A stretch of 64,000 nt of DNA from Escherichia coli (GTDB lineage Bacteria > Pseudomonadota > Gammaproteobacteria > Enterobacterales > Enterobacteriaceae). Position numbers and translations under genes: made by a program. The DNA lies in the NCBI RefSeq assembly GCF_045037415.1, contig NZ_CP173438.1, one strand, 5' to 3'. The notes under the pieces are model-generated. The model had not been told where the DNA came from and did not search any database. It saw only the letters and a list, made by a program, of their open reading frames with translations. This document shows positions 4,997 through 45,400 of the stretch, one piece after another. The first letter of the stretch is position 1. Every line of letters begins with the position of its first letter.

Positions 4997-5248
<252 letters not shown>

Positions 5249-5252
5249 CTAA

Positions 5253-7610
<2,358 letters not shown>

Positions 7611-9879: not shown

Positions 9880-9899
9880 CCCCGTACTTTTGTACGGGG
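9880..9899 (+). other. perfect 8-bp stem-loop in the hslVU 5' leader
   Basis: CCCCGTAC-TTTT-GTACGGGG, 35 nt upstream of the hslV ATG. Confidence 0.45.
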
Positions 9900-9934
9900 T
9901 TTGTACTCTGTATTCGTAACCAAGGGGTCAGCTC

Positions 9935-10465
9935 GTGACAACTATAGTAAGCGTACGCCGTAACGGCCATGTGGTCATCGCTGGTGATGGTCAGGCCACG
10001 TTGGGCAATACCGTAATGAAAGGCAACGTGAAAAAGGTCCGCCGTCTGTACAACGACAAAGTCATCGCGGGCTTTGCGGGCGGTACTGCGGATGCTTTTA
10101 CGCTGTTCGAACTGTTTGAACGTAAACTGGAAATGCATCAGGGCCATCTGGTCAAAGCCGCCGTTGAGCTGGCGAAAGACTGGCGTACCGATCGCATGCT
10201 GCGCAAACTTGAAGCACTGCTGGCAGTCGCGGATGAAACTGCATCGCTTATCATCACCGGTAACGGTGACGTGGTGCAGCCAGAAAACGATCTTATTGCT
10301 ATCGGCTCCGGCGGCCCTTACGCCCAGGCTGCGGCGCGCGCGCTGTTAGAAAACACTGAACTTAGCGCCCGTGAAATTGCTGAAAAGGCGTTGGATATTG
10401 CAGGCGACATTTGCATCTATACCAACCATTTCCACACCATCGAAGAATTAAGCTACAAAGCGTAA
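9935..10465 (+). CDS. hslV: ATP-dependent protease subunit HslV
   Basis: 176 aa; N-terminal Thr ([20 protein letters not shown]) typical of proteasome-like HslV. Confidence 0.95.
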
Positions 10466-23589: not shown

Positions 23590-23686
23590 GCCGGATGCGG
23601 CACAAACGCCTTATCCGGCCTACAAAAGTTTGCAAATTCAATAGATTACAGAATTCATGTAGGCCTGATAAGCGAAGCGCATCAGG
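23590..23686. repeat. REP pair (BIME) between pfkA and sbp
   Basis: GCCGGATGCGGCACAAACGCCTTATCCGGCCTAC and inverted GTAGGCCTGATAAGCGAAGCGCATCAGGC. Confidence 0.65.
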
Positions 23687-24886: not shown

Positions 24887-25789
24887 TTATGAAAGCATAG
24901 ACCGTTTACCCTCCCTGGGTACGACGGAACAGGGGTCCTGATGGATAATCACATCCGATCCCGGAAAACGCCGTAAAATAGCCTGCTCTACCTGATCCGC
25001 CACCATATGTGCCTGAACCAAAGGCAGAGAGTCTTCCATTTCCAAATGAATCTGAATAAAGCGGGTCGGCCCTGACTGCCGCGTGCGAAGATCGTGAGCG
25101 CCGCTAACACCCGGCCAGGAAGTCACGATATCAATAATTTCTTGCCGTTCCTCATCAGGCAATGCGCGATCCAGTAATGACTGTACCGCCTCATATCCCA
25201 TGCGTAACGCGCTATATAAAATATAGATGCCGATCCCCAATGCAAACAGAGCATCGGCGCGATGCCAGCCGTACCAGGACAACCCCAGCGCCAGCAGAAT
25301 TGCGCCGTTCATCATAACATCAGACTGGTAATGTAGCATATCAGCCCGCACCGCCTGGCTTTGCGTCCGGCGCACCACCCAACGCTGAAACGAGACAAGG
25401 ATAATCGTACAAATTAGCGCCACAATTGTCACGATAACCCCGACGCCTGGATCTGTCATCGGTGTTGGAGATACCAGATGTTGAATACCCGTCAAAAACA
25501 GGAATAGTGCCGAACCGGAGATAAACATACTTTGCGCCAGCGCCGCGAGGGACTCAGCTTTACCGTGACCAAACGAGTGATTATCGTCGGCAGGTTGCAG
25601 GGAATATCGCACCACCAGTAAATTCGTCAACGACGCACCGATATCCACCAGCGAATCCACCAGCGCGGCGAGAATACTCACCGACCCGGTATACCACCAT
25701 GCAAAAATTTTAATCAGCAATAGCAGCGAAGCCATCGCCGTCGCAGCAATCGCCGCCCGACTGACCAGCCGTCCATAAGATTGATTCAT
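24887..25789 (-). CDS. fieF: cation-diffusion-facilitator Fe/Zn efflux pump
   Basis: CDF-family membrane protein; internal start [23 protein letters not shown] at 25789 gives 300 aa. Confidence 0.9.
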
Positions 25790-25870
25790 AAATACTCCCG
25801 CTATCAACTGACGGTAGTATAACGGAAGCAAATCATCTGCAATGCATTAAGCAGCAGGCAAATTGAGGAT

Positions 25871-25930
25871 AAAAAAAACCCCCACATCATGTGGGGGAAG
25901 ACAGGGATGGTGTCTATGGCAAGGAAAACA
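25871..25930 (-). ncRNA. cpxQ: CpxQ-like sRNA derived from the cpxP 3' UTR, including the cpxP terminator
   Basis: minus-strand sequence ...UUUCCUUGCCAUAGACACCAUCCCUGUCUUCCCCCACAUGAUGUGGGGG + U8 lies just 3' of the cpxP stop; hairpin CCCCCACAT-CATGTGGGGG at 25879-25897. Confidence 0.55.
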
Positions 25931-25937
25931 GGGTTTA

Positions 25938-26438
25938 CTACTGGGAACGTGAGTTGCTACTACTCAATAGCTTCAACGATGAACTTTTTTGCCATTGCGT
26001 CACGTCGCGCAACTGCTCCATTCGTTGTTGATGTTTCTCGTTTAAAACCGCTTGCTGCTCCGGCGTTAACAGGCGATACATTTGGTTGCGGACTTTTGCC
26101 ATCTCAACCTGACGAGCAATTTGCTCATTCGCCATTTTTTCTGCCTGTGCGCGCACAGCGTTTTCATCAAAATTTTCTGCGGTGACAAGGCGATGCATTG
26201 TCTCCAGTTCGCTAACATTAACAGGAGGCTGTTCGTGCCGGGCCTGTTGCATAAGATCTCGCATCTGCTGACGCTGATGTTCGGTTAAACTTATGCCGTC
26301 GAACATATGGCTCTGCGTACTGCGCTGCGTAAGTTCTTCACCCGGATGCCAGTTATCGCCTGAACCGACTTCAGCAGCGTGGCTTAATGAACTGACTGCC
26401 AGCGTTGAGGCCATGACGGCAGCGGTAACTATGCGCAT
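25938..26438 (-). CDS. cpxP: periplasmic envelope-stress adaptor CpxP
   Basis: 166 aa with signal peptide and two LTxxQ motifs. Confidence 0.93.
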
Positions 26439-26517: not shown

Positions 26518-26532
26518 GTAAAACAACGTAAA
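26518..26532. promoter_or_regulatory. CpxR box in the cpxP-cpxR divergent promoter region
   Basis: GTAAA-ACAAC-GTAAA, exact match to GTAAA(N5)GTAAA. Confidence 0.65.
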
Positions 26533-28679: not shown

Positions 28680-28816
28680 GCCTGATGCACTACGCTTATC
28701 AGGCCTACAAAACCTGTTGAATTTATGGGTTTTGTAGGCTGGATAAGGCGTTTACGCCGCATCCGGCATTTGAGCAGGATGCCTGATGCGACGCTGATAG
28801 CGTCTTATCAGGCCTA
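28680..28816. repeat. cluster of three REP elements (BIME) downstream of cpxA
   Basis: GCCTGATGCACTACGCTTATCAGGCCTAC, GTAGGCTGGATAAGGCGTTTACGCCGCATCCGGC and GCCTGATGCGACGCTGATAGCGTCTTATCAGGCCTAC. Confidence 0.65.
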
Positions 28817-37605: not shown

Positions 37606-37823
37606 GCCGGATGCGGCACAAGTGCCTTATCCGGCCTACGGGTCGGCAATAGTTGTAGGCCTGATAAGACGCGACAGCGTCGCATCAGGCATTGATTGCC
37701 GGATGCGGCACGAGTGCCTTATCCGGCCTACGGGTCAGCAACAGTTGTAGGCCTGATAAGACGCGACAGCGTCGCATCAGGCATTGATTGCCGGATGTGG
37801 CGCGAGTGCCTTATCCGGCCTAC
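37606..37823. repeat. tandem BIME array (five REP elements, 92-bp period) between rhaA and rhaD
   Basis: alternating GCCGGATGCGGCAC(A/G)AGTGCCTTATCCGGCCTAC and GTAGGCCTGATAAGACGCGACAGCGTCGCATCAGGC units at 37606, 37655, 37698, 37747 and 37790. Confidence 0.75.
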
Positions 37824-42472: not shown

Positions 42473-45400
42473 ATGCAGGTCAGCAGAAGGCAGTTCTTTA
42501 AGATCTGCGCTGGCGGTATGGCAGGCACCACGGCAGCGGCACTGGGTTTTGCACCCAGCGTAGCACTCGCGGAAACCCGGCAGTATAAACTGCTGCGCAC
42601 CCGCGAAACCCGTAATACCTGCACCTATTGTTCCGTAGGCTGTGGGCTGTTGATGTACAGCCTCGGTGACGGAGCAAAAAACGCCAAAGCATCTATCTTC
42701 CATATCGAAGGTGACCCGGATCACCCGGTCAACCGCGGAGCACTTTGTCCGAAAGGCGCTGGCCTGGTGGATTTCATCCACTCCGAAAGCCGTCTGAAGT
42801 TTCCGGAATACCGTGCGCCAGGTTCTGATAAATGGCAGCAAATCAGTTGGGAAGAGGCGTTTGATCGCATCGCCAAACTGATGAAAGAAGACCGCGATGC
42901 AAACTACATTGCGCAAAACGCCGAAGGCGTGACTGTTAACCGCTGGCTCTCCACCGGGATGCTGTGTGCTTCCGCGTCGAGCAACGAAACCGGCTATTTA
43001 ACGCAAAAATTCTCCCGCGCGCTGGGTATGCTCGCGGTCGACAACCAGGCGCGTGTCTGACACGGACCAACGGTAGCAAGTCTTGCTCCAACATTTGGTC
43101 GCGGTGCGATGACCAACCACTGGGTCGACATCAAGAATGCCAACCTCGTCGTGGTGATGGGCGGTAACGCCGCTGAAGCTCACCCGGTCGGGTTCCGCTG
43201 GGCGATGGAAGCCAAAATTCACAACGGCGCGAAGCTGATTGTGATCGATCCTCGCTTTACGCGTACAGCGGCGGTGGCTGACTACTATGCCCCTATCCGT
43301 TCCGGTACTGACATTGCTTTCCTGTCAGGCGTATTGCTGTACCTGCTGAACAATGAAAAATTCAACCGCGAATACACCGAAGCCTATACCAACGCTAGCC
43401 TGATCGTGCGTGAGGATTACGGCTTTGAAGATGGCCTGTTCACCGGCTACGACGCGGAAAAACGCAAGTACGATAAGTCCACCTGGACTTACGAACTGGA
43501 CGAAAACGGCTTCGCCAAACGCGATACTACCCTGCAACATCCACGTTGCGTGTGGAACTTGCTGAAACAGCACGTTTCCCGCTACACGCCAGATGTGGTT
43601 GAAAACATCTGCGGTACGCCAAAAGACGCATTCCTGAAAGTCTGCGAATACATCGCAGAGACCAGTGCTCACGATAAAACTGCCTCGTTCCTTTACGCCC
43701 TCGGCTGGACGCAACACTCCATCGGTGCGCAGAACATCCGTACGATGGCGATGATCCAGTTGCTGCTCGGCAATATGGGGATGGCTGGCGGCGGCGTTAA
43801 CGCCCTGCGCGGTCACTCCAATATTCAGGGGCTGACGGACCTGGGGCTGCTGTCGCAGAGTCTGCCAGGTTACATGACGCTGCCAAGCGAGAAGCAGACC
43901 GATCTGCAAACTTACCTTACCGCCAACACGCCGAAACCACTGCTGGAAGGCCAGGTTAACTACTGGGGCAACTACCCGAAATTCTTCGTCTCTATGATGA
44001 AGGCCTTCTTTGGTGATAAAGCGACGGCGGAAAATAGCTGGGGCTTTGACTGGTTGCCGAAGTGGGATAAAGGCTACGACGTCCTGCAATACTTCGAGAT
44101 GATGAAAGAGGGCAAGGTCAATGGCTATATCTGCCAGGGCTTTAACCCTGTTGCCTCATTCCCGAACAAAAACAAAGTGATCGGCTGTCTGTCGAAGCTG
44201 AAATTCCTCGTGACTATCGACCCGCTGAACACTGAAACCTCTAACTTCTGGCAGAACCACGGTGAACTGAACGAAGTTGACTCGTCGAAGATCCAGACCG
44301 AAGTGTTCCGTCTGCCATCGACCTGCTTCGCGGAAGAGAACGGTTCAATCGTTAACTCTGGTCGCTGGTTGCAGTGGCACTGGAAAGGTGCGGACGCCCC
44401 GGGGATTGCGCTGACTGATGGCGAGATCCTCTCCGGTATCTTCCTGCGCTTGCGCAAGATGTATGCCGAACAGGGTGGCGCGAACCCGGACCAGGTGCTG
44501 AACATGACCTGGAACTACGCCATCCCGCATGAGCCGAAGTCGGAAGAAGTGGCGATGGAGAGCAACGGTAAGGCGCTGGCCGATATTACCGATCCGGCAA
44601 CCGGTGCGGTTATTGTCAAGAAAGGCCAACAACTTAGCTCGTTCGCTCAACTGCGCGATGACGGTACAACCTCCTGTGGCTGCTGGATTTTCGCCGGTAG
44701 CTGGACGCCAGAAGGCAACCAGATGGCGCGTCGTGATAACGCCGATCCGTCTGGCCTCGGTAACACGCTGGGCTGGGCATGGGCATGGCCGCTTAACCGC
44801 CGCATTCTGTATAACCGCGCCTCCGCAGATCCGCAGGGTAACCCGTGGGATCCGAAGCGTCAGTTGCTGAAATGGGACGGCACTAAGTGGACCGGCTGGG
44901 ATATTCCGGACTACAGCGCAGCGCCTCCGGGCAGTGGCGTCGGGCCGTTTATCATGCAGCAGGAAGGCATGGGGCGTCTGTTTGCCCTCGATAAGATGGC
45001 GGAAGGTCCGTTCCCGGAACACTACGAGCCGTTTGAAACGCCGCTGGGAACTAACCCGCTGCATCCAAACGTTATCTCGAATCCGGCGGCGCGTATCTTT
45101 AAAGACGATGCCGAAGCATTGGGGAAAGCCGATAAGTTCCCGTATGTCGGAACCACCTATCGTCTGACCGAGCACTTCCACTACTGGACCAAACACGCGC
45201 TGTTGAACGCGATTTTGCAACCAGAGCAGTTTGTGGAAATCGGGGAGTCGCTGGCGAATAAACTTGGCATTGCCCAGGGCGATACTGTGAAAGTCTCCTC
45301 CAACCGTGGCTATATCAAAGCCAAAGCGGTAGTGACCAAACGTATTCGCACGCTGAAAGCAAACGGCAAAGATATCGATACCATCGGTATTCCGATTCAC

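Follow-up and report, generated by a model that had tools for sequence, protein, structure and literature searches.

CpxQ, a small RNA derived from the cpxP 3' untranslated region, in the cpxP-fieF interval of Escherichia coli and its overlap with a phage attachment site

The window, meaning the whole 64,000-nt stretch of DNA analysed here, originates from the pfkA-fieF-cpxP / cpxRA region of the E. coli chromosome. A 901-nt segment around the locus, which covers cpxR, cpxP, and fieF, matches many complete E. coli genomes at 100% identity. The cpxP coding sequence, the parental mRNA of the element described below, occupies 25938–26438 on the minus strand (open reading frame and RefSeq annotation), and the fieF ATG lies at 25789. 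The interval to which the initial annotation assigned a CpxQ-like sRNA (25790–25937) is the entire 148-nt cpxP-fieF intergenic region. It does contain CpxQ, but the sRNA itself fills only 58 of the 148 nt, and the remainder is spacer and fieF upstream region. Specifically, the minus strand reads ...CAG TAG TAA ACCCTG, then TTTTCCTTGCCATAGACACCATCCCTGTCTTCCCCCACATGATGTGGGGGTTTTTTTT, then ATCC.... The 9-nt spacer UAAACCCUG (25929–25937, minus strand) connects the cpxP stop codon to the 5' end of CpxQ and, given the RNase E dependence described in the literature, would carry the RNase E processing site. CpxQ follows at 25871–25928 on the minus strand (58 nt; CpxQ nt n is window position 25929 − n). 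Its start 9 nt past the stop codon agrees with the proposed placement directly 3' of cpxP on the minus strand. Homologous loci diverge right after the U-tail, and 25790–25867 (minus strand) is the region upstream of fieF, outside CpxQ.

Several Rfam matches were recorded elsewhere in the window. Three naRNA4 (CssrE) matches above threshold (28737–28814, plus strand; 37658–37728 and 37750–37820, minus strand) are REP-type repeats, one of them just past cpxA. A SECIS_3 match at 43055–43113 (plus strand, 84.3 bits) presumably marks the selenocysteine insertion element in the gene for the alpha subunit of formate dehydrogenase-O. Further matches are to the ClpQY (hslVU) promoter element, the L31 ribosomal-protein leader, and ES036/CssrF (9880–9937, plus strand; 5216–5268, minus strand; 23625–23666, plus strand). 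The ES036/CssrF sRNA match, just 3' of pfkA, is borderline (37.9 versus 37.6 bits).

The MG1655 RefSeq record (NC_000913.3) annotates an ncRNA, cpxQ (b4716, 'small regulatory RNA CpxQ'), at 4106330–4106387, directly after cpxP. Alignment of window positions 25928→25871 with this 58-nt gene, the check suggested in the initial annotation, gives 57 identities of 58, which bears out the claim of a CpxQ-like sRNA in the cpxP 3' UTR. The one mismatch is a polymorphism in the terminator loop, at the third base of the triloop (CpxQ nt 42; 25887, minus strand), which is A here and C in MG1655. A is the majority E. coli allele and is also common to Salmonella contigs and WPhi attP. In 4192 complete E. 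coli genomes the 58-nt segment occurs without a single difference, and 1223 more match it at 95–99% (one or two differences). Agreement of this extent goes far beyond chance. Outside CpxQ, a C/G difference from MG1655 is found upstream of fieF at 25814, one of two single-base differences in the intergenic region. We assign 25871–25928 to CpxQ, a 3'-UTR-derived sRNA with its terminator and the non-coding arm of the Cpx response, with a probability of about 95%.

In the divergent cpxP/cpxR promoter region, a pattern scan of the window located a CpxR box, GTAAA-N5-GTAAA, at 26518–26532 (plus strand). Its sequence is GTAAAACAACGTAAA, and it is the sole match to this pattern in the 64 kb, with a chance expectation of 0.06. 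A consensus scan, a method unable to exclude internal promoters, detected no sigma-70-like site inside cpxP.

The minimum free energy (MFE) fold of the 58-mer leaves nt 1–13 unpaired and contains a 5-bp hairpin at nt 14–30, the terminator at nt 32–50, and U8 (−17.4 kcal/mol; z = −2.7 versus shuffles). The unpaired 5' region, UUUUCCUUGCCAU (25916–25928, minus strand), corresponds to seed region 1 and is essentially invariant in 108 loci. The small hairpin predicted by the same fold, AGACA-CCAUCCC-UGUCU (25899–25915, minus strand), probably holds a second conserved seed; the positions given for both seeds follow secondary sources. The terminator scan returned CCCCCACATGATGTGGGGG at 25897–25879, with 8 pairs (6 G-C), a loop of 3, and a T8 tail at 25878–25871. 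The hairpin, CCCCCACA-UGA-UGUGGGGG (25879–25897, minus strand), and the U8 tail at the transcript 3' end (25871–25878, minus strand) are the CCCCCACAUGAUGUGGGGG plus U8 in which the initial annotation had the element end. A U6–9 tail is present in all homologues listed. By analogy, the terminator and U-tail would constitute an Hfq-binding module.

Automated annotation gives no hint of this element. In other E. coli genomes, PGAP leaves the 100%-identical segment without any annotated feature, and Rfam at gathering thresholds has no match at the locus and no sense-strand CpxQ family, in line with the earlier statement that a known element is missed by gene-only annotation. The Rfam comparison proposed alongside the alignment turned out to be a misleading check: the sense strand is not matched, and the sole notable match, the best at the locus in a permissive scan, is to Hrs1 (RF02628) on the plus strand at 25871–25943, with 44.5 bits versus a threshold of 56.4. 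Weak matches to NsiR1, RyhB, and OmrA-B in the permissive scan cover the terminator only and were rejected as generic terminator shape.

Taken at face value, the orientation of the Hrs1 match implies that the functional RNA is a plus-strand transcript antisense to the cpxP 3' UTR. The match has an E-value of 3.5e-7, and the plus strand folds equally well. Nonetheless, the score is below the gathering threshold, the plus strand lacks a U-tail after the hairpin, and MG1655 cpxQ is annotated on the cpxP strand. Moreover, the Hrs1 model opens with A7 followed by a hairpin, that is, with a reverse-complemented terminator, and the source paper describes hrs1 as co-oriented with cpxP and fieF and as having a rho-independent terminator (PMC4070566). 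We give a plus-strand RNA almost no credence.

When reverse-complemented, the Hrs1 consensus reads as a CpxQ homologue. Erwinia loci pass the RF02628 threshold, also in antisense (82.7 and 72.8 bits; L029 5697–5771 and L047 1298–1373, both plus strand); the 82.7-bit match, in Erwinia persicina, is on the strand opposite cpxP and CpxQ. In Erwinia amylovora, hrs1 was reported to lie in the cpxP-fieF interval in the orientation of both genes, to end in a terminator, and to depend on Hfq; Northern blots confirmed the RNA, which was described as Erwinia-specific (PMC4070566). Position, co-orientation, and terminator are as in CpxQ, while the Erwinia variants differ from CpxQ by a 1-nt core deletion and by different terminator stems. 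Hrs1 thus appears to be the CpxQ orthologue, modelled by Rfam on the antisense strand. Its described restriction to Erwinia is contradicted by the homology to CpxQ, the core of which is invariant across the order. The window falls below the RF02628 threshold because of the narrow seed of the model and its orientation, not because homology is missing. A family built on the wrong strand from too narrow a seed would explain the missing CpxQ labels in automated pipelines.

CpxQ is conserved far beyond E. coli. We searched a single genome of each species for the pattern CCTTGCCANNGNCAN{2,3}TCCCTGTC, which fixes 19 core positions, leaves 12 of nt 1–31 free, and excludes divergent homologues by construction, and obtained at least 120 matches. 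Six matches were rejected as chance, having neither cpxP nor a terminator. True loci occur in at least 114 other species distributed over the Enterobacterales, from Escherichia to Proteus, Photorhabdus, Arsenophonus, Erwinia, and Dickeya, and a cpxP homologue is located directly upstream on the same strand at every listed true locus (at least 114) with enough flank to test. Across the listed loci, CpxP protein identity ranges from 98% down to 36–48%, and the cpxP 3' end is only 13–60% conserved in the same loci. CpxQ nt 1–31, including the 12 positions left free by the pattern, are 97–100% identical in 108 of the loci listed. Identity to E. coli is 0.47 at position −1 but 0.99 at nt 1, so that the conserved block starts exactly at the annotated 5' end.

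The downstream neighbourhood is less uniform. In 11 listed loci, fieF is 1.3–3 kb 3' of CpxQ instead of ~80–150 nt. No recognisable WPhi-type integrase was found in these 11 long CpxQ-fieF gaps, which may represent remnants or different insertions at this position.

The two structured parts of CpxQ evolve differently. At least 66 distinct terminator tails were found, all of which are perfect 5–9 bp hairpins followed by U6–9, with energies of −9.6 to −17.7 kcal/mol by per-sequence folding. A MAFFT and RNAalifold analysis of 44 diverse homologues misaligned the variable-length terminators and returned only the invariant small hairpin; per-sequence folding and a gap-free subset of 13 sequences were used in its place. 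In this subset, stem pairs 36–46 and 37–45 each occur as 4–5 pair types, and the terminator covariation score is 0.213, compared with 0.040 for shuffled alignments, none of which (0 of 500) reached the observed value; sliding the partners brings the score close to zero. That all of the at least 66 terminator sequences form perfect hairpins indicates compensatory change, through which the terminator structure is kept. For the small hairpin at nt 14–30 covariation is neutral, since its 5 pairs are invariant.

This pattern bears on whether the segment is merely the 3' UTR of cpxP with its intrinsic terminator and does not act in trans. A hairpin followed by U8 is typical of any terminator, and regulation in trans is not demonstrable from sequence alone. 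However, hairpin and U-tail suffice for termination, yet these are the parts that vary (at least 66 variants), while the 31 nt 5' of the hairpin stay invariant across the order even where CpxP identity drops to 36–48%. An invariant single-stranded seed combined with a terminator variable in sequence and conserved in structure is what would be predicted for a trans-acting Hfq sRNA, not for a bare terminator. Together with the published genetics, which demonstrate repression of skp, nhaB, and cfa in trans, this makes the terminator-only explanation very improbable.

The 5' boundary of the conserved block also agrees with a processed sRNA. The junction is CCCTG|TTTT or CCTG|TTTTT in 80 of ~109 loci among the matches listed, and R followed by a U-run in nearly all. 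RNase E favours U-rich sequence just past the cut (published RN|WUU motif), and the G|UUUU junction fits this preference. The conserved G|UUUU context and the conservation boundary at nt 1 are consistent with RNase E processing.

The 3' two-thirds of cpxQ coincide with a phage attachment site. The 47-bp attB core of WPhi-type P2-like phages (25868–25914, minus strand) comprises CpxQ nt 15–58 plus ATC, is exactly identical to WPhi attP, and is unoccupied here. In WPhi, the attP core is located between ogr and int (L004 2501–2547) and is flanked by four TGTGGAC repeats; the core was also noted at L003 20001–20061 and L125 2501–2625, and 62 phage records carry the 47-bp core. The assignment as attB follows from the core identity and from occupied sites with int and ogr at the junctions: attL in strain 23556 has the order cpxP-cpxQ-int, with CpxQ intact, and attR in strain 3908 has the order ogrK-core-fieF. 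Of 5425 complete E. coli genomes, 4590 have the junction uninterrupted, which leaves about 835 (15%) with an interruption. Some E. coli genomes contain 2–4 partial CpxQ copies, one of which is on a circular 32-kb P2-like element beside an integrase gene. In at least 12 other Enterobacterales species, a WPhi-Int homologue (51–84% identity) is encoded 140–290 nt 3' of CpxQ. In Rosenbergiella and Tatumella, a second CpxQ copy, starting from nt 17 and carrying a host-specific terminator, flanks an insert.

These data raise the question of whether the segment is conserved as an attachment site and not as an RNA. The 47-bp identity with attP, the interruption of about 15% of E. coli genomes at this point, and the integrase genes after CpxQ in other species would fit such an origin. 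But preserving attB has no known benefit for the host, phages typically use RNA genes that were conserved beforehand, and nt 1–14, outside the att core, are equally invariant. In addition, host-to-host variation within the core is confined to the terminator, and Rosenbergiella and Tatumella have the host-specific terminator in their att repeats, which fits phages tracking the host. Conservation driven by the phage is therefore exceedingly improbable.

The attachment site itself has been described. For WPhi it goes by the name 'cpxP-fieF', and the P2-type insertion sites given in the E. coli W paper include rybB, cyaR, and cpxP-fieF (PMC3032704). A Salmonella Infantis prophage uses cpxP-fieF as well. 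In the searchable literature, which names the site 'cpxP-fieF' only, no link between it and CpxQ was found. The 'cpxP-fieF' site of WPhi/PhiESI-type prophages is the 3' two-thirds of the cpxQ gene, and cpxQ is thus a third P2-type att site in a gene for an Hfq-dependent sRNA, after rybB and cyaR.

We consider it improbable that the use of cpxQ as a landing pad by P2-like phages across Enterobacterales has functional consequences. The att identity is solid, and a functional consequence of the overlap is speculative. If there were one, the copy carried by every WPhi-type phage (CpxQ nt 15/17–58, with the second conserved stretch and the Hfq-binding terminator) might be expressed from the phage or from attR, it might mimic part of CpxQ or compete for Hfq or targets, and lysogeny might alter Cpx-dependent regulation or fieF expression. 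However, ogr of WPhi has a separate terminator before the core (L004 2400–2419), and the sequence preceding the WPhi core yielded no promoter-like site, both of which weaken this possibility. The ogr terminator makes a functional phage-borne CpxQ fragment unlikely, and likewise argues against the phage core being the terminator of ogr or an sRNA from its 3' UTR.

CpxQ of E. coli K-12 and Salmonella is the subject of Chao & Vogel 2016 and Grabowicz et al. 2016. At the present locus, the analysis itself covers the identity to an annotated gene, the position, the terminator and its compensatory changes, the fold, the CpxR box, and how the element is conserved. Phosphorylated CpxR would bind the GTAAA-N5-GTAAA box upstream of cpxP, giving one transcript that ends at the hairpin and U8. 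RNase E would then cut this transcript 9 nt past the stop codon, at the G|UUUU junction, and free a stable RNA with a 5' monophosphate, composed of an unpaired, conserved 5' seed, a small hairpin holding the second conserved stretch, and a terminator and U-tail for Hfq. Together with Hfq, CpxQ would base-pair with mRNAs such as nhaB, skp, agp, ydjN, fimA, and cfa, blocking their translation or promoting their decay by RNase E, and would thereby provide the Cpx response to inner-membrane stress with its non-coding arm. For RNase E processing, Hfq binding, and targets, this scheme adopts what the literature reports for CpxQ.

Specifically, biogenesis of CpxQ via RNase E and Hfq and repression of nhaB, skp, agp, ydjN, fimA, and cfa have been reviewed (PMC9438474), and E. 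coli CpxQ lowers Skp and CpxP (PMC4817254). Regulation of nhaB by CpxQ was reported in E. coli, with U7 pairing with nhaB and a CpxQ half-life of >16 min (PMC10250213). C5, C6, and U7 of CpxQ were mutated to disrupt pairing with cfa, and compensatory mutations in the target were reported to restore regulation (Bianco et al.). All three seed nucleotides are present in the window CpxQ.

The CpxQ of the window is already known, a textbook 3'-UTR-derived sRNA that was correctly recognised. Its recognition has annotation value and is not a discovery; routine annotation by PGAP and Rfam still misses it. It shares with E. coli K-12 b4716 the locus, strand, length, terminator, and CpxR-controlled parental gene, the unpaired nt 42 being the sole difference, and is identical at 58 of 58 positions to the CpxQ of Salmonella contigs in the phage collection. 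As an attachment site, cpxQ resembles those in tRNA, tmRNA, rybB, and cyaR genes, where the phage attP likewise duplicates the 3' part of an RNA gene and integration regenerates an intact gene. Those targets, however, are free-standing RNA genes, whereas cpxQ encodes an sRNA derived from a 3' UTR. Among RNase E-processed 3'-UTR sRNAs, SdhX, SroC, MicL, NarS, and DapZ are built like CpxQ: the mRNA terminator provides the sRNA 3' end, RNase E generates the 5' end near the stop codon, and all are Hfq-dependent (PMC9438474). They differ from CpxQ in parental genes, seeds, and regulons, and their sequences are unrelated.
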